A stretch of 64,000 nt of DNA from a virus. The stretch lies in IMG/VR virus record IMGVR_UViG_3300017971_000261, positions 1-64,000 of that record, one strand, 5' to 3'. Below the pieces are notes generated by a model. The model searched no databases, was not told where the DNA came from, and worked only from the letters and a program-made list of their open reading frames with translations. A program made the position numbers and the translations under genes. This document shows positions 19,734 to 41,389 of the stretch, piece after piece (the first letter of the stretch is position 1; every line of letters begins with the position of its first letter).

Positions 19734-20195
19734 ATGAATCAGGAGAAAATCTCAAACAAGGAACCGTGGCAAATGACACTAGATGAATACCTGTCATCGA
19801 TGCCTGAAACAGCACGAAACCAAACTGTTTCAGCGCGACTTCTAGTGCCCATACGCAACCCAATAGGCCCCCCAAATTGTATCGAAGAAGACCGCAACCA
19901 TCAGTTGGGACATATGCTGAGGCTGAATGATGCTAACGGTGTAGGTCGAGCAATCGTTGTGGTCAAAAACGGTTACATCATTTACGCAGAAGTAGATCCT
20001 AAATTAGAGGGATATGGTTTGATCCATGCGTTGACTAGTGCCTTTGAGTCTGCTGGTGCGACACATGCTTCCATTGGCACTATTGGGGGCGCGAAGGCTG
20101 CCCACCGATGGCAGGTTTACCTTGCTGCACGAAAAGGGAAACAAATCCCGAACCATGTTCTATTGGATTATCCTGAGTTATTCAATCTCATCTAG
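19734..20195 (+). CDS. Hypothetical protein with polyvalent-protein-like motif
   Basis: PWQMTLDEY...H...GKQIPNHVLLDYPEL; central GNAT-like segment. Confidence 0.6.
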   Translation: MNQEKISNKEPWQMTLDEYLSSMPETARNQTVSARLLVPIRNPIGPPNCIEEDRNHQLGHMLRLNDANGVGRAIVVVKNGYIIYAEVDPKLEGYGLIHALTSAFESAGATHASIGTIGGAKAAHRWQVYLAARKGKQIPNHVLLDYPELFNLI

Positions 20196-21170
20196 AAATT
20201 CAAGATCGTTTTCTAATTTGTCCCGTTGGATCATTATGACGTATTTGACTTTAGAAGCATCATCTTCCGTTATGATCTGCTCACGAATGCTGTCTGGAAA
20301 ATCGAGCTGGATGAACTTCTCTACAGGATCGTAGCCTGTTACTATCAATTCGGTGCCTTCGGTGATCTGTCTACAGTCTGTGGACTTGAAGCAAGATGGT
20401 ATCTTTTCGATGCATTCGTTGTAATAAGAACCGGGGTCGAAGTTAACTGGGCTCTTTGTTTTGACTCTTGGTTTTCTATCGGCATTCTGCTTCCTCCATT
20501 CTTGGATTCGTCGGTTTCGTTCCCTGTTAAGCTTTTCGAATGACTTTCCCCTCTCTTTGATCTCTCTTGGGTCTCTCTCGCCTTTTAGGTAGGCTATTTG
20601 CATTCCCAGAAGATATCGAACTCGTTTGTTCTCAAGTTCTTGGGCCTGTTGCGGGGATAGATCTAAGTTGTGTTTCTTGTTGAAGTTTTCGACATTTGTC
20701 TTGATTTGTGGCGGCGACATAGGCCCTTCAGACGAGTAGTCCTCGAACCACTTTGTTTCTCTTCCGGTGATCGCCATCTCTATCAACATGTCCACCGGAT
20801 TCCAGTTAGGCTTTTGTGTTGTATCTGGCCCCACTTTAGTGTCTTCCATGTTTTGTCCTTTCATTTTGATTACACGATTGTGTCCGATTTCTGAGAGAAT
20901 AGAGTTTGAGATTGATTGGATTTTCGGCAGCTCTCTTTCGAGAGCGTTTGATATACCTGTCCGCTCGTACTCACCAGCCAGAATCCAGAAGCACTCTGTT
21001 CCTAGTATCTCTTTGCCATCACACACAAAAACTGGCGTCTCGTGCTTGTACCCATCGAGATCTATTTCCCTGTATTCAAGGAACTCAGCATCTATAGACG
21101 TAGAACCAAAATCTCGTCTATAGACGATTTTGACAGAATCTCCGCTGTTTAGTCTCCTTCTCTTTGGCAT
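20178..21170 (-). CDS. Hypothetical protein
   Basis: 330 aa ORF. Confidence 0.7.
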   Translation of the reverse strand: MPKRRRLNSGDSVKIVYRRDFGSTSIDAEFLEYREIDLDGYKHETPVFVCDGKEILGTECFWILAGEYERTGISNALERELPKIQSISNSILSEIGHNRVIKMKGQNMEDTKVGPDTTQKPNWNPVDMLIEMAITGRETKWFEDYSSEGPMSPPQIKTNVENFNKKHNLDLSPQQAQELENKRVRYLLGMQIAYLKGERDPREIKERGKSFEKLNRERNRRIQEWRKQNADRKPRVKTKSPVNFDPGSYYNECIEKIPSCFKSTDCRQITEGTELIVTGYDPVEKFIQLDFPDSIREQIITEDDASKVKYVIMIQRDKLENDLEFLDEIE

Positions 21171-21188
21171 ATCGCTTTTGGATTATAG

Positions 21189-22022
21189 CTATGCGGCTGG
21201 TGTCCAGGCATCATCCTGATATGGATCTTCCACATCCAGTTGTTGTCGGATTTGTTCAATTCGTTCCTGTTCGGCAGGATTACCTTCGAAGTATGAACCT
21301 ATAAGGGTTCTCTCTATATCGACTACTCTTGAGTGAGCCATGTGCCCTAATGTGTCTTCTAGTTTCTTGTTCGTCAATTCGCTTATCGCCCTTAGATAAA
21401 CTGCTGGACCTCTATTCATACCATAGGAGCAATGAACATATATGAGACTTTGTTGGTCCGGAGGAAGTTGTGCTTGTGCTCTGATGGTCTCGGCCAACTT
21501 CCCCGCTGCCGCTGTATAGAGATTGTGATATTCGCGGCTAATCTCGTTCAATCGTTCGTCTCGGCTGTTGAAACCTAGACGAGGGGGTTCGGAAAGTGGG
21601 AAGTTATAGCGTTTTGTGACACCTTCAAGAGCTTCGTGGGATTGATCATCTGTCACATTGAACTCTATAACCTCTGGTTTCCGGCCGTAGGTTTGTATGA
21701 ACTTTTGCTTGGCGTCGTCCAGTTCGAGGTTATTTGCTCCCCCTACAAAGACAAACGGGAATTCCGGCGATTGGTATGCTGGGTTATAGATGTCTCCGTC
21801 ATCTGCGATCTGAACCTGAGCACGTGGACGATCCCCTCTTGGGTCATAGAAGGTGTTTGTGCGCGGATCGCTCCCTCTAATTCCCTGGTCTAGTTGATAA
21901 GCTAGTTTTCGTACCCAGTTTACGCGTCTTACTCGCACTTTTGCTCTGATCCGGTCTTTGAGTTTTCTTCTTTTTTGCTCGCCTTTTCCTTCTTTGGTAT
22001 TCGGTGGCGGCATGTTCGACAT
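21189..22022 (-). CDS. Protein tyrosine/dual-specificity phosphatase
   Basis: IYVHCSYGMNRG (CX5R P-loop); FVFVGG; NVTDD acid loop. Confidence 0.8.
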   Translation of the reverse strand: MSNMPPPNTKEGKGEQKRRKLKDRIRAKVRVRRVNWVRKLAYQLDQGIRGSDPRTNTFYDPRGDRPRAQVQIADDGDIYNPAYQSPEFPFVFVGGANNLELDDAKQKFIQTYGRKPEVIEFNVTDDQSHEALEGVTKRYNFPLSEPPRLGFNSRDERLNEISREYHNLYTAAAGKLAETIRAQAQLPPDQQSLIYVHCSYGMNRGPAVYLRAISELTNKKLEDTLGHMAHSRVVDIERTLIGSYFEGNPAEQERIEQIRQQLDVEDPYQDDAWTPAA

Positions 22023-22420
22023 GACACCGATTTCGACGTGGGGGATCGGCGTTCAAACAGATCGCACATGTGTTTGTCTGCTACGTCGATTCCTCGTATT
22101 TCGCAAGTGTTTTTGCATCGTTTGCTTGGCTTCATGCCTTTCTCCGATCAAACGATCTATAGGACATCTTGTGTCCCTAAGAGTTTAGGGCCATTGTCGT
22201 CTTTCGGATCTCAGGACTTACCCTCTGATTTCTTATACCCAGCCACAGATGACGAACCCTTGCTCATATCCTGTTAGTCTTAGGAACATAAGTTAGCAAA
22301 CATAAACAGATTACGAGCCCCAATGCTTCGAAGGATGACCCTCTGGCTTGACAAAGCGGGAAAAGTAGGGTACTTATATTCATGGCAGTTCGTCAGTACC
22401 TGTGAATGTGAGGCATTTCC

Positions 22421-22792
22421 ATGACCACCAAGGCAAGAGGAAAAATCTCAATCAAGGCAAAAAGATGTCCGGGTTGCGGCCGATTCTTCTCGAAGAGGCC
22501 GCATGAAGGACCTAAGCGGTTTCAGCAACGCACCTTCTGTAACCGTGAATGTCAACGTAGATTGATGGTCAGAGATCCAGAGAGAATCAAGAAATATCGC
22601 CGCACCATGCGTAACAAGCGTGCGGAGCCCCATGCTGTCACACCAGAGGAAGTTGAGAAAACGATTGCAGAAATCAGGGCGGAGAAGATCGCAGCCGGGC
22701 AGAAGACTATTATGGAGAAGATGAATGACGAACGTTGGCACGCCAGAGTGGTGTCAACCAGGTTCATTCCAAGGTCATTTTTGTCCGGTTAA
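22421..22792 (+). CDS. Single C4 (FCS/TRASH-like) zinc-finger protein
   Basis: CPGCGRFF...RTFCNREC. Confidence 0.7.
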   Translation: MTTKARGKISIKAKRCPGCGRFFSKRPHEGPKRFQQRTFCNRECQRRLMVRDPERIKKYRRTMRNKRAEPHAVTPEEVEKTIAEIRAEKIAAGQKTIMEKMNDERWHARVVSTRFIPRSFLSG

Positions 22793-22801
22793 GGCACGCC
22801 C

Positions 22802-23233
22802 GTGGAAGCAAACGTCAAAGAGTTCGTACAAAAGCTATCAGAATTGATTGATCTTGCCGAGGCCACTGATGAAATCAAAGAATTCGATCGATTGATGGTT
22901 AAGCTCTGGCGTATGGTGCATAAGGTGTACGTTGCTTGTCTTCATTCGCCATCGGTTTATAACGATGTCAGCATCGAAGATCTTGACAAAATGATTGCTT
23001 TGCTGCAATCTCTTGAGAACAAGCTGAAGGTTAGGCCAGATAGCCTAAAAATGAGTAAGGAGAAGAAAGAGTATTACGACATGGTGATTGCATGCATAAA
23101 GATGAATCGCCTTCTGATTAGACGACGAAAACGTCGCATTCAGAAACTTCCCACAATGCCAATAGATGACCCCAGAACGATAGGCCAGGAACCTGCTGAA
23201 CCTGAGCCTGCTCCCAATCCAATCGGTCGGTAA
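22802..23233 (+). CDS. Hypothetical protein
   Basis: 143 aa helical ORF. Confidence 0.6.
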   Translation: MEANVKEFVQKLSELIDLAEATDEIKEFDRLMVKLWRMVHKVYVACLHSPSVYNDVSIEDLDKMIALLQSLENKLKVRPDSLKMSKEKKEYYDMVIACIKMNRLLIRRRKRRIQKLPTMPIDDPRTIGQEPAEPEPAPNPIGR

Positions 23234-23250
23234 AATTCAGCCTTATTGGT

Positions 23251-23279
23251 TTGACAAATCCGCTGCCCCGTTGTATACT
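23251..23279 (+). promoter_or_regulatory. Sigma70 promoter
   Basis: TTGACA-N17-TATACT. Confidence 0.8.
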
Positions 23280-23280
23280 T

Positions 23281-23340
23281 GTCATCCGTAGTCCGTTGCT
23301 GTCTAACGATGTCCACTCGTGTCCACTGTAGTCCAAACGG
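23281..23340 (+). repeat. Six 10-bp-phased GTC(C) repeats
   Basis: gtcatccgta gtccgttgct gtctaacgat gtccactcgt gtccactgta gtccaaacgg. Confidence 0.8.
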
Positions 23341-25077
23341 ATGCGACTTGAACAAAGCAAAACGTCGGTCGAAGAATCGATTGGGCTCACCGCAAACCAG
23401 ACGGTACCAACCTTAGGACATTCCGACGATATTTCAGACGACGGCAGGCTCTCGAAAGAATGCAGGGTCTGTAAATCCATATTCTACAAAAGGAGCAAGC
23501 GAACACTCAAAGAGTGGGAGACCACCAAATGCTGTTCTAGAAGATGCAGCGCGATCCACATGCATCGTGTACTTGCTGCCCGCCGCAGACTCGCCGAGAA
23601 GGAAACCAAAACATACTGCAAGGTCTGCAGAAAACTCATCAAACGACGCGAAAATGAACCGCTTGCAACCTATCGCCAGCGCAAAGTCTGTAGTGATGCA
23701 TGTAGGATTCTTAGCATCAAGAAACAGGCTCAACGCCGCACCCAGCTACGTTCGACTCCAAAGAAATGCATTGCCTGCGGCAAACGCTTCAAAAGACGTG
23801 CAAACGAGCAAGTGTCCAAATTCGAGGAAAGGCAAACATGCGGTCGAAAATGCACGTGGAAGCTAAAGGTCGTTCGTCCAACCAAGACCTGCTTAGCATG
23901 CGGGAAAGAATTCGCCAAGAACAAGAGGGACTCATTGGAGCAGTGGTCTAACAGAAAGGTCTGCAGTAGGAAATGTGTCGCTAAATTGGCTAGGGCTAGA
24001 TCCAAATACTCACACAGCAAGATAAGCAGCAAGAAAACATGCAGCCCTACCAAGCGGTGTCTTGTCTGTGGAAAGAAGTTCTCGAAACGGCGAAAAGAGA
24101 GCATTACCAACTTTACATCACGCAAAACGTGTGGTATGTTTTGTGCGGATGAGTTGAACTCTCTGCACATGAAGGAACGCTACAAGAAAACAGCTGAACA
24201 ACGAAGAAAACGGACCAAGCAGTGGAAGAAATGCCGCATTTGTGAATCAAGGTTCTACAGGAGAGAAAACGAAACGGACAAGGAATGGAAAAAGCACTCA
24301 TATTGTTCCAGCACGGAGTGCCGTGACAGACTTTTCAAGCTTGCTTCTGCTCGTCTCAACGAAAAACGCCGTCAACGACGCCAGAAAATCGAGACGAAGC
24401 AGTGTGTCATCTGTGGCAAGAAGATCGAACGACGATGGGGAAAGGAAAGCGCAAGACGATGGAAAGAGAGACAGTGTTGTGGGCGTGATTGTGCCCAAGA
24501 ACTTGGGGCTCGAACCAGACGACGTCAAGGTCTAGAAATCAAACGCCAATGCGTAATCTGTGGGAGAGAGCTGCCTGCTGGTTACACAAAGCGAAAACTC
24601 TGTGGTAGATTAAGCTGTAAAAAACGCTTGAGACGCCTCAGGCTTGAGGAAAGAAAGAAGAATAGACCCAAGAAAACATGTCAAACCTGCGGCCGAATCT
24701 ATATGCGTCCCAGCAATCTGTCTGATGAACAATGGAAGAAACGGAGCGCATGTAGTAGCAAGTGTGTTTTACTACTGAAACAGCAGAAAAACATGGTGAA
24801 AACGAAGGATGTCATTCGCTCCGAGGCGACGCCAAAGGCCAATTACGCGTCCTTCGTGGGTAAAGATGCTGGATATGTCAAGTTAGCCGCCGAACTGGTC
24901 GGCGAAGAAATGATAAGGCAGCTTCTTTTAGACCAAATATCTCTTGATTCGGTGCTGCCGAAATACCCCATTACACCAGGAGAACCGGAAACATGTCACG
25001 CCGAAGAAGAAAAAGGACACGAAGAGACAGAAGGACAGATGGACCGGCCTCAGGAAGCAACGTCAATCGCAGTGTAA
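23341..25077 (+). CDS. Tandem array of nine C4 zinc-finger repeats, very basic, no catalytic domain recognised
   Basis: Nine CxxC-x13-21-C[SG]x2-3C units. Confidence 0.85.
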   Translation: MRLEQSKTSVEESIGLTANQTVPTLGHSDDISDDGRLSKECRVCKSIFYKRSKRTLKEWETTKCCSRRCSAIHMHRVLAARRRLAEKETKTYCKVCRKLIKRRENEPLATYRQRKVCSDACRILSIKKQAQRRTQLRSTPKKCIACGKRFKRRANEQVSKFEERQTCGRKCTWKLKVVRPTKTCLACGKEFAKNKRDSLEQWSNRKVCSRKCVAKLARARSKYSHSKISSKKTCSPTKRCLVCGKKFSKRRKESITNFTSRKTCGMFCADELNSLHMKERYKKTAEQRRKRTKQWKKCRICESRFYRRENETDKEWKKHSYCSSTECRDRLFKLASARLNEKRRQRRQKIETKQCVICGKKIERRWGKESARRWKERQCCGRDCAQELGARTRRRQGLEIKRQCVICGRELPAGYTKRKLCGRLSCKKRLRRLRLEERKKNRPKKTCQTCGRIYMRPSNLSDEQWKKRSACSSKCVLLLKQQKNMVKTKDVIRSEATPKANYASFVGKDAGYVKLAAELVGEEMIRQLLLDQISLDSVLPKYPITPGEPETCHAEEEKGHEETEGQMDRPQEATSIAV

Positions 25078-25088
25078 CCATTAAGCGG

Positions 25089-27857
25089 ATGGGGTTAATT
25101 GCTCTGTCCGTGTCGTTATGCATTGGGATCGGCATTGCATGTGTTCACTCCGAAGGAGGCCGCTGGCGATCCGTTGACGAACAACTCAGGGCCGAGGCTG
25201 TGCAGCGTCTGATTGTTCCCACTGACTATCCAACGATACAAGCAGCAGTTAATGCCGCCGATAATACTGATATCATTATCCTGGAGAATCGTGAGTTCAC
25301 AGGAGAAGGGAACAGAGACATCGACCTCGGTGGCAAGTCTGTTACAATACAGTCTGTAAACCCAGACATGCCGACCATCATCCAGTCAACGATCATAGAT
25401 TGCCAGGGTACTGAATCAGATCCTCATCGTGCCTTCATTCTGAATGAGGTAAATCAAGGCTATGCAACAATCGAAGGCATAACCATCACAAATGGCACAG
25501 CATATGGTTCATCAAGTCCGGACGAAAGGGGTGGTGCTGTCCTTTGCCAGAATAGCAATGTCCATTTTAACTACTGCCGATTCATTGGCAATAAGGCCCA
25601 AAAGTACGGAGGGGTCATGATTGTTACTGGCAGTGGAGCACAGGTCATACGAAACTGCCTTTTTGAGAACAATCATGCCGGTAATGAAGGCGGATGTATT
25701 GATTCTGGTTCTACGACCATGATCATCGAGAACACCATATTCCGCAACAATCATGCATCCGGCGGTGACAATACGATGGGTGGTGCTATTGCTTTCGGTG
25801 GGAATAGCTTGGAAATCCATAACAGTACCATCATCGATTGCTCTGTGGAAGGCAGGGGCGGTTCGATTTCTACCTGGGGAACTGCTGCACTTAGCTTTCA
25901 GAATGTAAGCATTGTGGACAACAATGCAGGAAACAGAGGTGGCGGAATCTACCTGTCGCCGGATGCCAATCTGACTGCTGTTAACACGATCCTATGGGGA
26001 AACACAGATCAGGGCGGTTCGGATTGGAGTGCCCAGATCCACGATGGTAGACGCGGCACGTTTTCTTACTCGTGTGTGCAAGGCTGGGACAGGGGAGGGG
26101 AAGCGAACATCAACACCGATCCTAAACTGACCGACTTCCATATTGCTGTTGATTCGCCCTGCAAGGACGCCGGTGACGCGAGCCTTTCTTATGTCGAGCT
26201 TCAGAAAGACATTGACGGACAGATGCGTGTATCAGATGGACATGTGGATATTGGTGCTGATGAATACGTCAGCCTCATCACGCGTCATGTTCCATCTGAT
26301 CATACTACCATCCAAGAGGCAATTGATTCCTGCAATGATGGAGATACCGTCCTTGTCTCGGATGGGACTTACAGTGGCCCGGGCAACCGAAGCATCTATC
26401 TGAGGGGCAAAGCTATCACTGTGGCGAGCGAGAATGGCCCATCTGCTTGCATCATCGATTGCGAAGGTCAAGCGAGAGGATTTTACCTACGCCAGGGAGA
26501 GAAAGACACAACAAAGATTAAAGGGTTTACAATCAAGAATGGTACTGCCTTCTACGGCGGCGGTGCCATTTTCTGCTATACATCCAGCCCATGGATAGAA
26601 AACTGCGTCTTTGAGTCCAACACTGGCTCATGGGAAGGCGGAGCCATCCGATGTTCGACCAATTCTAGTCCGATCATCATGAACTGCAAGTTTGCACTCA
26701 ACACCAGTACAAGCTGTGGCGGTGCTCTCGCGGCCAGGGGTGACTCCAGACCCACTGTGATGAACAGCCTTTTCGTGCTGAACAGTAGCGAGAAATTCGG
26801 CGGTGCGATCTACTGCGGTCGAGGCACAACCCTTACCGTTGTTGGTTGCACGATCTTGCGTAATGATACCAACCACATGGGCGGTGGTATTGCTTGTATC
26901 GGGGGCAACATCAATATCTTTGACACAATCATGAGAGAGAATACATGTGGAAACGTCAATCTGGCAACGACACTTCCTGCCTATGGTATCTCTGGGCATG
27001 TTATGCACGAAGTGAACGGAACACCAATAAAGGATGTTGCCATCAACCCAGATCCCAACACAATGAATGGTGCAACAACGGATGAATACGGATACTACGA
27101 AACCGCTGTCGCCGCGACCCTTACGCCTATCAACCAGGAGGAAACCACGGATGGGAAACAGCTGGCTCTGATAGGCGGCGGTGGCAGCGGCATCATGTTC
27201 CACTGCAATATCGAAGGCGGTATCGATGGTGTAGCGATTGATCCCAATTCGCCTCTCACACACCGGCCAGAGGCTACAACTGACGCTGATCCGCTATTTG
27301 TTGATTCAGATGGAGCAGATAACGACGCGAATACATGGCAAGATAATGACTACCATCTTACCGTTGGATCACCTTGTATCGACGCCGGATATGAGGGCCT
27401 ACTGCCGATATATGCTGGCTCAGTCGATCTGGACAATGAAACGAGAGTCCTTCAGGGGAAGGCCGATCTTGGTGTCGATGAAGTCAATTACTTCAAGGTT
27501 GGAGGAAACGTTCCTATCGCCGCGTGTGAGATACAACCACCGCCTTACGTTACGAGCGGGGACGAAGTCGTAGCACGATACATGTCCGGTACGCAGCTTT
27601 CGATAGCAGTCACGGATCTTAAGGTTGCGGCACTGACTGAGGGATGGCTTGTCTGGGATGACCCTAATCTCAGGGGAGACGCGAACTACGCCAGATCTTA
27701 CATGGGTTCATCGCTCATTCTGGACGTAGACAGCGACAAACACATAGCCATCAAACTTCGCACCGGCCAGTGTGGGAAGGGCAATTTTGTTGCTATAGTA
27801 GGTGTTCTTCTCGTTCTCTCAATTGCCAGATTTTGTACCGGCAGAAGAGGACGATAG
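25089..27857 (+). CDS. Secreted/surface parallel beta-helix (pectin-lyase-like) repeat protein
   Basis: Signal-like N-terminus; two VPxDxxTIQxA modules; GGAI repeats; DIDG...DIGADE; C-terminal CGKG-TM-RRGR. Confidence 0.85.
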   Translation: MGLIALSVSLCIGIGIACVHSEGGRWRSVDEQLRAEAVQRLIVPTDYPTIQAAVNAADNTDIIILENREFTGEGNRDIDLGGKSVTIQSVNPDMPTIIQSTIIDCQGTESDPHRAFILNEVNQGYATIEGITITNGTAYGSSSPDERGGAVLCQNSNVHFNYCRFIGNKAQKYGGVMIVTGSGAQVIRNCLFENNHAGNEGGCIDSGSTTMIIENTIFRNNHASGGDNTMGGAIAFGGNSLEIHNSTIIDCSVEGRGGSISTWGTAALSFQNVSIVDNNAGNRGGGIYLSPDANLTAVNTILWGNTDQGGSDWSAQIHDGRRGTFSYSCVQGWDRGGEANINTDPKLTDFHIAVDSPCKDAGDASLSYVELQKDIDGQMRVSDGHVDIGADEYVSLITRHVPSDHTTIQEAIDSCNDGDTVLVSDGTYSGPGNRSIYLRGKAITVASENGPSACIIDCEGQARGFYLRQGEKDTTKIKGFTIKNGTAFYGGGAIFCYTSSPWIENCVFESNTGSWEGGAIRCSTNSSPIIMNCKFALNTSTSCGGALAARGDSRPTVMNSLFVLNSSEKFGGAIYCGRGTTLTVVGCTILRNDTNHMGGGIACIGGNINIFDTIMRENTCGNVNLATTLPAYGISGHVMHEVNGTPIKDVAINPDPNTMNGATTDEYGYYETAVAATLTPINQEETTDGKQLALIGGGGSGIMFHCNIEGGIDGVAIDPNSPLTHRPEATTDADPLFVDSDGADNDANTWQDNDYHLTVGSPCIDAGYEGLLPIYAGSVDLDNETRVLQGKADLGVDEVNYFKVGGNVPIAACEIQPPPYVTSGDEVVARYMSGTQLSIAVTDLKVAALTEGWLVWDDPNLRGDANYARSYMGSSLILDVDSDKHIAIKLRTGQCGKGNFVAIVGVLLVLSIARFCTGRRGR

Positions 27858-27946
27858 AAGGCAGGGATCATGTTTAACATGTTTGTAATCCTAAAGATGT
27901 GTCGTCCGGGGTCTACTCTCTCGGCACATACTCGTTGGAGGGTAGT

Positions 27947-28384
27947 ATGTGCAGTTCCGCGTCAAGCACAGAGGATTTACAAGAGTTAGAAAGTCAAATC
28001 AGGTCTCAGGAAAGTCGGAGGGTTCGAACTGAATTCTCCAGGATGCTCCTTCCTTTAGCCGACATATTACAGGAGATGCTTAACAAATGTCGTGATGGCG
28101 ACGGCCATCTCGTCGTCAATTCTTTGACTGTGGGCACTCTTGTCGAGATGATGCAGGCCGTTCTTTGCGAGGAAGGCGTATGCAGATATGCTCCGTCATG
28201 CGGTGAGGAGTATAATCAAGAGATGCACGACGCCGTTGAGATAATACTGTCCGAGGAAGTATCCGAGGGACATGTCGTCACAACGGTTCAAGATGGTTAT
28301 GAAATAGACCGGTCTTGCCTCCGAAAGGCAAGAGTCGTGATCTCGAACGGAGCCCAGATTGCACCTGAGAACACTGACGCATGA
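27947..28384 (+). CDS. grpE: GrpE-like nucleotide exchange factor
   Basis: LLPLAD, GEEYNQEMHDAV, VQDGYEI...LRKARVVI. Confidence 0.8.
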   Translation: MCSSASSTEDLQELESQIRSQESRRVRTEFSRMLLPLADILQEMLNKCRDGDGHLVVNSLTVGTLVEMMQAVLCEEGVCRYAPSCGEEYNQEMHDAVEIILSEEVSEGHVVTTVQDGYEIDRSCLRKARVVISNGAQIAPENTDA

Positions 28385-36604: not shown

Positions 36605-36688
36605 GTCCCGGTGGTGGAACTGGCAGACACGCGGGCCCGAGGAGCCCGTGCTCGAAAGAGCGTGAGGGTTCGAATCCCTCCCGGGACA
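36605..36688 (+). tRNA. tRNA-Leu(GAG), C at position 33
   Basis: GTCCCGG/CCGGGAC, stem CGGGC/GCCCG, loop CCGAGGA, long variable arm, A73. Confidence 0.92.
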
Positions 36689-36714: not shown

Positions 36715-36743
36715 TTGACATGAGCAGGATCATGTGGTATACT
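36715..36743 (+). promoter_or_regulatory. Sigma70 promoter
   Basis: TTGACA-N17-TATACT with TGTGG. Confidence 0.8.
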
Positions 36744-36875
36744 AGAAGCACGGATGAAGGTTCGCGCTCTGAGGTAACGGTAGCGATATAATGAGATGAC
36801 GAATAAGGCAGAGCTGTAAAAAGAAAGGTGCCTGCCTCTGCTGTTTCGAATGTTAGTTTAACGGAGGAAACTAAC

Positions 36876-37658
36876 ATGACAGCAAGAAGCCGCAGACGAT
36901 ACAGCGAAAGCCAATTTCGTGAAGCCGTAAGAGAGTCGCGTTCAGTTGCAGAAGCATTGAGGAAACTTGGTCTTTCACCCCATGGCGGTGGAGGATATGA
37001 GTCATTCTACTCATATTGCGAGGAGACCGGAACGGATTGGAGCCATTTCAAGGGCCAGGGTTGGTTGCGTGGCGGTTCATGTTCGTGGTCTCAGTTCAAA
37101 GCAAGACCTCTTGAGGAGATATTAGTAGAAGATTCTACTTATCTTTCTACTGCCAATCTGAAGCGCAGGCTTATCAAAGAGGGCGTGTTTGAGGACAAAT
37201 GTTACGAATGTGGTCTTAAGGAATGGCGTGGGAGCAAATTGCCGACTGAGCTGCATCATAAGAACGGCAACAGACGTGACAATAGGCTGTCCAACCTAAT
37301 AATACTTTGTCGGAATTGTCACGGTCTAACACAGAATTTTCGCCAGCGTAACGGGAGATCGTCCAATGGCGTCCTGGGACAACGGAAACACAAACCAGGG
37401 CGAAACAGAACAGGACGAAAACGAGAGCTTAATGACAGAACGTGCCCTACTTGTCATAAAGAATTCAGGCCTCGCCGTAGGGAACAGAGATTCTGTTCGT
37501 ATACCTGCAGTTCTCTGTCGAGGCGAAAACGAGATCGGCCGAATAAGGCCGTCCTTTTGCGGATGGTTAACGAATCTTCTGTCTGTGCTGTCGCCAGGGA
37601 CATGGGAGTATCGGACAACACTATACGCAAATGGATCAAATTCGGAGAAGACTGTTAA
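36876..37658 (+). CDS. HNH endonuclease with Zn finger and C-terminal HTH
   Basis: CYECG, ELHHKNGNRRDNRLSNLIILCRNCH, CPTC...FCSYTC, ARDMGVSDNTIRKW. Confidence 0.9.
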   Translation: MTARSRRRYSESQFREAVRESRSVAEALRKLGLSPHGGGGYESFYSYCEETGTDWSHFKGQGWLRGGSCSWSQFKARPLEEILVEDSTYLSTANLKRRLIKEGVFEDKCYECGLKEWRGSKLPTELHHKNGNRRDNRLSNLIILCRNCHGLTQNFRQRNGRSSNGVLGQRKHKPGRNRTGRKRELNDRTCPTCHKEFRPRRREQRFCSYTCSSLSRRKRDRPNKAVLLRMVNESSVCAVARDMGVSDNTIRKWIKFGEDC

Positions 37659-37662
37659 ATTA

Positions 37663-37747
37663 GGCCCAGTGGCGAAACGGAAAACGCGGCACGCTCAAAC
37701 CGTGTTGTCCCATCGTGGACTTGAAGGTTCGAATCCTTCCTGGGCTA
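37663..37747 (+). tRNA. tRNA-Leu(CAA)
   Basis: GGCCCAG/CTGGGCT, stem GCACG/CGTGT, loop CTCAAAC, T arm GAAGG-TTCGAAT-CCTTC. Confidence 0.93.
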
Positions 37748-38835: not shown

Positions 38836-38919
38836 GCCTCTGTGGCGGAACAGGCAGACGCGCGGATTTTAAGAGTCCGTGTCCTTAGTGGCGTACAGGT
38901 TCGAGTCCTGTCAGGGGCA
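38836..38919 (+). tRNA. tRNA-Leu(TAA)
   Basis: GCCTCTG/CAGGGGC, stem CGGAT/GTCCG, loop TTTAAGA, ACAGG-TTCGAGT-CCTGT. Confidence 0.93.
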
Positions 38920-39173: not shown

Positions 39174-39426
39174 TTTCAAACAGGCATTAACAGACGCTGC
39201 TGATTTGTTTTGTGCCTACATGTACTTGAAAATGCGATACGTCAGGGAACCAGACAGCATCGTAACCGGCAACCTTAAGCCAGAGAAAGGAACAATCAGG
39301 TTTACTCGCGGGAGAATGCAACTGCTGATCAAAGTGAAGTATGCTTCTTTGGCAGCAGATGCGACCACTGGACTCTTCCCGCATACTTGGATTTTGGATG
39401 TCCAAAAGCAAGCCAAATCCGGATGA
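39163..39426 (+). CDS. Hypothetical protein (tandem paralog 2)
   Basis: ALTDAADL...GRM...TWILDVQ. Confidence 0.6.
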   Translation: MKIDFKQALTDAADLFCAYMYLKMRYVREPDSIVTGNLKPEKGTIRFTRGRMQLLIKVKYASLAADATTGLFPHTWILDVQKQAKSG

Positions 39427-41389
39427 GTACAGTGAAAAGTCAATCAAGATCCTTGAGGGTCTGACTGCTGTACGCAAGCGTCCATCCATGTATATCGGCG
39501 ATGTCGGTCATGCCGGTCTCCATCATCTCGTTCAAGAAATCATCGACAACAGTGTAGATGAAGCACTTGCTGGGCACTGCACTGCAATACAGGTTGTTCT
39601 ACACAAGAACGGCTCTTGTACGATCTCAGACAATGGCCGTGGCATCCCAGTCTACAAAATGAAGCACGAGAACCCAAAGATCAACGGCAAGCCAGCCGCC
39701 GAGATCTGCCTGACTACTCTTCATGCCGGTGGTAAGTTTGACCGATCGATCTACAAGGTTTCCGGTGGATTGCATGGCGTCGGTGTCAGTGTTGTCAACG
39801 CCTTAAGCAAGTGGCTATGGCTTGAAGTAAAACGCGATGGCAAGATGTGGCAGATGGAATTCGAACAAGGCAAAACCACCAAACCGATGAAGTCCAAGGG
39901 TGCAACGAATGCAACTGGAACGACCATTCAGTTTCAGCCGGACCCGAAAATCTTCAAGAAGGATCGGACCTTCTCATATGAGCTGTTACGGGATCGCTTG
40001 CGTGAACTTGCCTTCCTGAATGATGGACTCAGCATATCTATCAAAGACGAGAGAACTGGGAAAAAAGATCGTTTCAAATTCAGGGATGGACTGAAACAGT
40101 TTGTCAAGGCGGTTGCCAGTGGAAGTGAGCCTATCCATCCCGTGCTTCGTCTTTCCGGCCGGGAAAAGGAAACCGGTCTTCAGATGGATCTGGCACTCCA
40201 GTATACCGATGAGTATTCAGAAAATACTCTCGTGTTTGCCAACAACATCCGCAACATGGATGGTGGCACACATCTTTCTGGTTTGCGGTCTGCCCTGACA
40301 CGTACCATCAACACCTATGGTAGAACTGCCGGTATCTTCAAGGATGGTATGAACCCAACAGGAGATGATATACGAGAGGGTCTTTGTGCCGTTCTTTCTG
40401 TCCGAGTCCCGGAGCCACAGTTTGAGGCACAAACCAAAGTTCGCCTGATGAATCCGGAGGTAGGAACCTTCGTAGAACAGACTGTAAACCGTCTCCTGTC
40501 CCAGTGGTTGGACTCAAACCCACATGATGCTAAGAAGATCGCCCTGAAGGGCCTGAGGGCCGCTAGAGCACGAGAAGCAGCCAGGAAGGCCAGAGAGCTG
40601 TCACGGAAGGGTTCCCAGGCCAAGGATGACATGCCAGCAAAGCTCTGGGATTGCACGAGCAGACGTGTCAGGGAGCGTGAGATCTTTTTGGTTGAAGGCG
40701 ATTCGGCCGCTGGCAGTGCGAAGAGCGGCAGGGATAGTAAATTTCAGGCCATCCTTCCCTTGCGTGGCAAGATACTGAACGTTGAAAAGGCCAGAATCGA
40801 CAAGGTCCTGTCAAACGAGGCCCTACGTCAAATGGTGACGGCAATCGGCTGCGGCATTGGACGTCTGGATTTTGATCTGAATAAGCGTAGATACGACAAG
40901 ATCATTATCATGACAGATGCCGACGTTGATGGAAGCCATATCAGGACCTTGATCTTGACCTTCTTATTCAGACACATGAGGCCACTGATAGAAGGTGGGC
41001 ATGTCTATGTCGCGTTACCGCCGCTGTTCGAGATCAGAAAGAAAGGTGGCCGCAAAAGCATCTATCTAAAAGACGAATCAGACCTCAATAGATGGGCCCA
41101 ATCTGAGGAAGTAGACATCAAGGAGTCAAAGGATTACGTGATGAAGCGTTTCAAGGGTCTCGGCGAGATGAACGCTGAGCAGCTTTGGGACACCACCATG
41201 AATCCTGAGAATCGTCAACTTCAGAAGGTTGTCATGTGCGACAGGACGGATGATGAAAGTAGCATGGAATACCAGATGGATGCACGTGAGGCGGATCGAA
41301 TGTTCAAGGTTCTGATGGGCTCAAATGCAGAAATACGAAGGACATACATCGAGGAAAACGCCTTGCATGTTGGCCAGCTGGATGTCTGA
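39398..41389 (+). CDS. gyrB: Type IIA topoisomerase B subunit (GyrB/ParE)
   Basis: VRKRPSMYIG, EIIDNSVDE, GGLHGVG, EGDSA, PLRGK, MTDADVDG, RFKGLGEM. Confidence 0.95.
   Translation: MSKSKPNPDEYSEKSIKILEGLTAVRKRPSMYIGDVGHAGLHHLVQEIIDNSVDEALAGHCTAIQVVLHKNGSCTISDNGRGIPVYKMKHENPKINGKPAAEICLTTLHAGGKFDRSIYKVSGGLHGVGVSVVNALSKWLWLEVKRDGKMWQMEFEQGKTTKPMKSKGATNATGTTIQFQPDPKIFKKDRTFSYELLRDRLRELAFLNDGLSISIKDERTGKKDRFKFRDGLKQFVKAVASGSEPIHPVLRLSGREKETGLQMDLALQYTDEYSENTLVFANNIRNMDGGTHLSGLRSALTRTINTYGRTAGIFKDGMNPTGDDIREGLCAVLSVRVPEPQFEAQTKVRLMNPEVGTFVEQTVNRLLSQWLDSNPHDAKKIALKGLRAARAREAARKARELSRKGSQAKDDMPAKLWDCTSRRVREREIFLVEGDSAAGSAKSGRDSKFQAILPLRGKILNVEKARIDKVLSNEALRQMVTAIGCGIGRLDFDLNKRRYDKIIIMTDADVDGSHIRTLILTFLFRHMRPLIEGGHVYVALPPLFEIRKKGGRKSIYLKDESDLNRWAQSEEVDIKESKDYVMKRFKGLGEMNAEQLWDTTMNPENRQLQKVVMCDRTDDESSMEYQMDAREADRMFKVLMGSNAEIRRTYIEENALHVGQLDV

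Follow-up and report, generated by a model that had tools for sequence, protein, structure and literature searches.

A nuclease-free array of nine long-loop zinc fingers and a candidate operator in the leader of its own gene, on a phage genome fragment

Introduction

Does a phage protein that carries nine zinc fingers bind the phased repeats that fill the leader of its own gene, and does it thereby control its own expression? The question is raised by a locus in an 80,267-bp linear virus record (IMG/VR record IMGVR_UViG_3300017971_000261). We analysed the first 64 kb of this record (the window; all coordinates are window positions). The original prediction was that the protein is a modular reader of nucleic acid, derived from the fingers of homing endonucleases, which might autoregulate through the repeats. 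Since the protein and a candidate 60-bp site lie side by side, the locus is well suited to asking if such fingers read DNA sequence and, if so, with what step length.

Results

A very basic protein with nine finger units and no nuclease

The gene at 23341-25077 (+) encodes a protein of 578 amino acids that is strongly basic (155 K+R versus 64 D+E; pI 10.1) and contains 40 cysteines. Its nine C4 units begin at residues 41, 93, 143, 184, 240, 298, 355, 404, and 447, and the array spans residues 41-475 (23461-24765, +), which confirms the original description. All nine cysteine sets are intact over the 1.7-kb frame, and every unit has the signature C-x2-C ... C-[SG]-x2-C with a spacer of 14-30 residues. 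Eight units have a long loop of 20-21 amino acids, and the unit at 404 has a short one. The consensus first proposed for the units fits, except that E14 is kept in just five of the eight long units. The linkers are uneven (12-29 amino acids); they had also been described as helical, which appears in structure models alone. At the DNA level, the eight long units are only 34-56% identical to one another, so the array did not arise by recent expansion.

The array is followed by a C-terminal tail of 103 amino acids (24766-25074, +), which has an acidic end, belongs to no recognised family, and is not a nuclease. No nuclease domain was found by Pfam in the protein or by Pfam or PHROGs in the tail, and none of the three forward frames at the gene's 3' end showed an HNH-like remnant; the protein had been predicted to lack a recognisable nuclease, and this was borne out. 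By eye, the tail resembles a helix-turn-helix (HTH), which neither a 21-sequence profile, nor hhalign (0.04%), nor a 4-sequence profile supported. When residues 440-578 were compared with shorter proteins, none of 15 candidates matched. As a full-length homolog, the protein found itself alone among 8,000 candidates scored, and there was none in viral contigs or GenBank phages. Through its fingers, it matches PHROG 1271, an HNH family (E = 7.6e-14). Its Atlas matches all scored under 0.9 and serve as leads only.

Two other genes in the window encode related fingers, as had been proposed. A paralog of 123 amino acids (22421-22792, +) carries one long-loop finger that aligns with the array units and has no phased repeats upstream. 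The other is a separate HNH endonuclease gene (36828-37658, +), with one short-loop finger and an HTH. Its finger, at 36876, is of the same class and is a short-loop relative of the array units (hhalign 89%, E = 2.4e-6). This gene has its own near-consensus promoter at 36715 and sits between the first two of three tRNA-Leu genes (36605-36688, 37663-37747, and 38836-38919, with anticodons GAG, CAA, and TAA). Between the paralog and the promoter of the array gene lies an ORF of 143 amino acids (22802-23233, +) with no match to an HTH or any other family above the cut-off. Divergent from the finger genes is a 277-aa ORF (21189-22022, -) with a C-x5-R motif and a weak match to dual-specificity phosphatases (E = 0.035).

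The finger belongs to a large family that is often joined to nucleases

We built a finger profile from nine units, eight from the array protein and one from the one-finger paralog. It matched 1,358 representative proteins at E ≤ 0.001 and 207 at 1e-10. From the best 150 of the 1,358 matches, we left out the query and classified the remaining 149 by their endings, using motifs and a Pfam scan. An HNH was found in 64 of them, a PD-(D/E)xK/DUF559-like domain in eight, and an HTH-like tail in 20; four were false C2H2 matches, and in 53 nothing was recognised, a group that includes a few missed nucleases or HTHs (such as P0002 and P0012) and probably some cut-off genes. In the nuclease-bearing proteins among these 149, the same finger forms arrays of two to eight ahead of the HNH or PD-(D/E)xK domain. 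That 72 of the 149 join the finger array to a nuclease supports the predicted link to fingers of the homing-endonuclease type. However, about half of these best matches are nuclease-free, so such arrays are not rare; with multi-finger and nuclease-free relatives this common, the array is less unusual than first thought. By profile count, the array protein has nine units versus at most eight elsewhere in the best 150 (false C2H2 matches excluded), and a looser count gives 15 C4 units in P0130. A related virus protein is annotated in GenBank as a five-zinc-finger DNA-binding protein and in RefSeq as an HNH protein. Three nuclease-free sub-groups each have a short conserved tail motif of their own (P0137, P0142, P0143, and P0148; P0102, P0114, P0117, and P0133; and P0054, P0088, P0099, P0100, P0108, and P0146).

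The family consensus, taken from 444 units, is K-x-C-x2-C-G-x2-[FL]-x-R-R-x2-E-x4-[FWY]-x2-R-K-T-C-[SG]-x2-C. A spacer of 20 dominates among these units, and positions 15-18, 20, and 21 are highly variable. Units 1, 4, 6, and 9 of the array protein are altered at several of the conserved positions. A two-finger model based on a 94-row alignment (pLDDT 93) has, in each unit, a hairpin and two helices, one short and within the long loop, the other C-terminal; the variable positions are predicted to lie on the loop helix. (A single-sequence AlphaFold model was poor, with a pLDDT of 54, and we kept it out of our claims about the fold.) No PDB entry matched the finger model under E = 0.001 in Foldseek. 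The top structural matches were weak: YacG (Z 3.8, rmsd 3.0, 37 residues aligned), the FCS finger of L3MBTL2 (Z 3.5, rmsd 3.3, 39 aligned), chains of ribosomal protein L24e, and the FCS finger of HPH1. Weak as they are, all belong to the TRASH clan (CL0175) as listed in PMC4047054, with DUF2256, zf-FCS, YacG/DUF329, L24e, and MYND. Among viral structures, the matches were mostly HNH and zinc-finger proteins. In the model, the unit takes the form of a treble-clef finger with a long loop, similar to those of the TRASH clan, and the four invariant cysteines of each unit suggest zinc binding. In Pfam, the array protein falls below every cut-off; it scores 15.4 bits for DUF2256 (PF10013) versus a gathering score of 25, which some relatives pass (P0003 at 32 and P0007 at 36.7). 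We found no match to zf-FCS (PF06467) at E = 0.1, and no unit has F before the third cysteine.

Six phased repeats fill the leader of the array gene

The near-consensus promoter, TTGACA-N17-TATACT (23251-23279, +), is present as originally described; by match to consensus, it is of the sigma-70 type, with agreement at 11 of 12 positions. It is the best of eight promoter-like sites in 20000-28000. The promoters at 36715 (+), 41404 (+), 6399 (-), and 3033 (-) share an extended GTGGTATA -10 element, and the promoter of the array gene is without the extension. Between the promoter and the ATG lies a candidate operator of six WGTC-led units with an exact 10-bp period (23280-23340), which spans the transcription start expected from the -10 element as well as the whole leader; this start probably falls within the first unit. 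From 23281, all six 10-mers start with GTC and four with GTCC, as originally described, and the preceding base is A or T each time. There is no -10 element downstream of the repeats.

This arrangement is well above chance. When we searched for trimer runs of at least five copies at periods of 5-30, the leader array was the sole one in the 80-kb contig. Across 40 Markov-simulated contigs, there were ten runs of five and one run of six, and none of 20,000 shuffles of the leader had more than four phased copies. Four other good promoters in the contig are without such an array. The notion that the repeats are the end of an unrelated insertion sequence, which the original prediction had itself raised, finds no support: none of the 25 longest inverted-repeat pairs lies at the array, and no transposase is adjacent. 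A structured RNA is likewise unsupported, as the leader folds no better than its shuffles (z = 0.29) and has one Rfam match, at chance level. A Shine-Dalgarno-like word, present at 6 of 11 other starts that we checked, is absent before the ATG of the array gene. Read by hand, an out-of-frame ATG in the third repeat opens a 35-codon frame (23309-23416, +) that overlaps the start of the array gene and could lower its translation.

The finger array and the repeats are both rare among related phages

The capsid protein of this phage is 66-83% identical to capsids at 80 viral loci, several of them on records of 460-550 kb, so we regard the record as a fragment of a jumbo phage, with most of the genome unseen. 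We surveyed 50 of the 80 capsid-related records, mostly the longest (about 6.9 Mb; six near complete and most of them fragments). None has a finger array, one has a single weak finger match, and none has a phased WGTC array of four units. In five large records, a wider profile matched nothing beyond HNH proteins and single fingers. Thus, both the finger array and the WGTC array are rare in this clade, yet here they are side by side, and this joint rarity favours a link between them. The occurrence of the finger array among related phages is sporadic, as for a free-standing homing endonuclease.

Most of the region is also present in two metagenome runs (X1 and X2), one from sediment and one from seawater; one of them, possibly X1, may be the sample from which the record came. 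Contigs of run X1 cover the leader and the ORF at 23341-25077 without any difference, and at 22073, contigs of both runs have a T>C difference. No close relative of the region was found in viral contigs or in contigs of metagenome runs. A tblastn search for loci of nuclease-free arrays gave nothing or weak unrelated matches, and we could confirm the DNA context of no other nuclease-free array in the viral contigs, metagenomes, or genomes searched. In samples of phyla, 3 of 401, 0 of 400, and 1 of 301 genomes had matches (6-8 candidates scored in each genome), with no long-loop array.

WGTC arrays at other viral loci have other neighbours

Across viral contigs, WGTC arrays of five units are a common feature, with at least 119 loci. 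Among the matches listed, there are 109 distinct arrays: 66 with varied units, 32 near-perfect tandems, and 11 microsatellites with a 5-bp period. Five loci (L382-L385 and L387) share a 5-bp microsatellite of variable length within one phage gene family, and the frame is split in L382, L384, and L385 and not in L387; this might reflect phase variation. None of the 119 loci among the matches listed has a long-loop finger gene. Of 123 flanking ORFs at the listed loci, we scanned 66, including 40 of the 47 that lie upstream. Ten of these 40 encode HTH late regulators of phrog_36 (four are at near-identical loci), and a WGTC array with a 10-bp period follows directly (L028, L033, L044, L045, L061, L071, L083, L092, L093, and L107). 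Each of the ten arrays is followed by a -10-like hexamer, located 12-31 nt from the start of its last unit, and none is preceded by a full promoter. Another three listed arrays lie inside replication-initiator genes. Read on the opposite strand, the WGTC core gives the -35 core, and we infer that this would suit readers resembling sigma region 4.

The layout in the window, with a full promoter before the array and no -10 after it, is shared by none of the 119 loci among the matches listed. A scan for a promoter with a downstream WGTC array gave seven loci, of which six are microsatellites and one is inside a chaperone gene. Among 387 viral loci, the long-loop finger is encoded at four distinct places, two with an array and an HNH and two with a single finger, and none of the four has phased repeats upstream. 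The check that had been proposed, for phased repeats upstream of homologous arrays, therefore came out negative at both array-plus-HNH loci that were read. One locus (L208, 3914-4999, +) encodes a five-finger array with an HNH and has TATAAT upstream; flanked by the portal/head-morphogenesis and prohead protease genes of another phage, it is placed like a free-standing homing gene.

Discussion

Autorepression and its parts

Our preferred reading, to which we give a probability of roughly 40%, is that the array protein is a targeting array of the homing-endonuclease type that has no nuclease and represses its own gene on DNA. The protein would be a stand-alone, beads-on-a-string DNA binder, built from the finger that mobile phage endonucleases carry ahead of their cutting domain. 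A strong promoter of its own would drive the array gene, and the phased WGTC units, six in all and covering the start site and leader, would serve as an operator whose sites face the same side of the helix. The array protein would then lie along these units, with about one finger per helical turn, and shut off transcription of its gene, as I-TevI does. The parts of this reading differ in strength. That the protein binds DNA is very probable, and it is nearly as probable that the repeats function as an operator. That the protein itself binds the repeats falls a little short of even odds. A stricter form of the original idea seems unlikely to us: that one turn of the DNA helix is read by each of the long-loop treble-clef fingers, whose conserved R/E/R residues would hold the WGTC core while the variable residues of the loop helix recognise its flanks, and that the gene's leader displays the cognate site.

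The position of the array says that the repeats control the array gene and that they do so negatively, as a site downstream of a complete promoter has the geometry of a repressor site. Together with the joint rarity in relatives, this makes autoregulation through the repeats plausible. Autorepression is also supported because a repeat protein faces a repeat site, with the sole phased array in 80 kb filling exactly the leader of the array gene, and because I-TevI (PMC2988022) and CapR (PMC10448857) are precedents. Against it, none of the listed WGTC loci encodes the finger, the two array-plus-HNH loci have no upstream repeats, and our scan for promoters with downstream WGTC arrays gave only microsatellites or matches inside other genes. 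Nine fingers face six units, and the linkers are uneven. Furthermore, the FCS finger of human PHC1 binds DNA and RNA with no known specificity (PMC13449738).

Alternative explanations

The repeats might instead be the operator of another protein, from the phage or the host, that represses the array gene, with the fingers binding DNA elsewhere; we consider this possible, if rather doubtful. Such a protein could be either an HTH regulator of the Ltr/ArpU/RinA-like kind, resembling sigma region 4, or a MraZ/AbrB-like oligomer. The WGTC word does have other likely readers, given the phrog_36 regulators and the arrays in replication-initiator genes among the listed matches, and since most of the phage genome is missing, another regulator may exist. 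Ltr proteins are described as binding direct repeats (PMC3753634), and the boxes described for MraZ recur every 10 bp, the first of them containing the start site (PMC12957436), which is the geometry of the leader here. However, no -10 element follows the array, the upstream 143-aa gene has no HTH match above the cut-off, the 80-kb record contains no match to the Sigma70_r4 domain, and the absence of WGTC arrays from the surveyed capsid relatives argues against a clade-wide regulon. For MraZ in particular, GTGG occurs in just two of the six units and on the minus strand. We think it quite unlikely that the protein recognises the repeats in its own mRNA, as GUC at 10-nt intervals along an open leader running up to the AUG, and acts as a translational repressor of its gene. 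The leader is unstructured, its last unit abuts the AUG, no Shine-Dalgarno-like word precedes the start, the TRASH neighbours of the finger include ribosomal L24e, and an FCS finger, that of PHC1, binds RNA; but a period of strictly 10 nt suggests duplex DNA, the start site probably falls within the first unit, and relatives in the family are fused to DNA nucleases.

It seems equally improbable that the gene is a decaying relic of a homing endonuclease, which lost its nuclease and has no useful function, with the repeats as a leftover. Its sporadic occurrence, the lack of a full-length homolog in our searches, and the changed positions in units 1, 4, 6, and 9 would fit decay, but the long frame with nine intact cysteine sets, the near-consensus promoter, the absence of any nuclease remnant in three frames, and the recurrence of nuclease-free arrays with conserved tails of their own do not. 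It is very unlikely that the repeats serve replication as iterons, or form some other structural element of the DNA with no connection to the finger gene. Besides the arrays in replication-initiator genes, cumulative GC skew reaches a shallow minimum at around 20-22 kb; this minimum coincides with a switch of the coding strand at about 22.0-22.4 kb, however, no initiator gene is adjacent, and the array fits the interval from promoter to ATG exactly. We give just as little weight to the idea that the fingers, in the manner of YacG or MYND, bind protein and that the array serves as a scaffold, for example against gyrase. YacG, a gyrase inhibitor, is the top structural match, and the phage has a GyrB-like ORF (39341-41389, +; recognised by eye), but the Z score is low and tied with those of other TRASH fingers, the protein is very basic, and its relatives are fused to nucleases and HTH tails.

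Why the locus matters

The finger family is large and is placed in front of nucleases. If the array protein does bind the repeats, it would be a second case, like CapR, of homing-endonuclease fingers turned into a regulator, and possibly a new programmable DNA-binding module. If each finger reads one helical turn, the nuclease-bearing relatives would be natural zinc-finger nucleases with a decipherable code. If there is no sequence-specific binding, then the array gene is simply one more nuclease-free representative of a mobile family that is common.

Comparison with known systems

We found no description of such long-loop finger arrays in the open-access literature. The units resemble TRASH-clan fingers in their C-x2-C-x(14-30)-C-[SG]-x2-C spacing and, in the model, in their hairpin and helix. 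They differ in falling below the Pfam cut-offs, in lacking F before the third cysteine, and in having a fixed 20-residue loop with an extra helix and the motif R-R-x2-E-x4-[FWY]-x2-R, with nine copies in one bacteriophage protein.

Free-standing phage endonucleases of the HNH and DUF559/Vsr-like types (PHROG 1271; HFTV1 gp39, MG550112.1) share the tandem arrangement of the same finger, a promoter of their own, and sporadic occurrence. The array protein differs from them in having no nuclease and more long-loop units (among the best 150), and the gene differs from the two array-plus-HNH loci in its phased leader repeats. Because the same finger is fused to nucleases in relatives, we view the array gene as the finger-array portion of a mobile endonuclease, with the nuclease portion absent.

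Among regulators, those described as binding repeats through several subunits include Ltr (RinA/ArpU/LtrC), which acts at short direct repeats of late promoters (PMC3753634), and the phrog_36-linked arrays share the WGTC core with the leader repeats. In the Ltr scheme, the repeats come right after the activator gene and before the -10; the phrog_36-linked arrays fit this scheme (compared by position, not by repeat word), whereas here the repeats follow a full promoter and no HTH gene is adjacent. The operators described for MraZ are also boxes with a 10-bp period over the start site (PMC12957436), as here if the start site is correctly placed from the -10 element. Unlike the leader units, each MraZ unit has a GTG(G/T) box, and the gene downstream here is not mraZ.

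The two closest precedents for the proposed mechanism come from homing endonucleases. The DNA-binding domain of I-TevI is described as occluding its own promoter, so that the enzyme represses its own gene (PMC2988022). It differs from the array protein in having an active GIY-YIG nuclease and a single 20-bp operator that resembles the homing site, with no phased repeats. CapR, from the PLE satellite of Vibrio cholerae, is described as a nuclease-free repressor made from the zinc-finger DNA-binding repeats of a homing endonuclease (PMC10448857). By that description, its finger is a different one (CxxC...CxC; DUF723/DUF4397-like), it is encoded by a satellite, and it targets the capsid operon of the helper phage, whereas the candidate target of the array protein lies in the leader of its own gene. 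What is new at this locus is the candidate operator beside a nuclease-free finger array.
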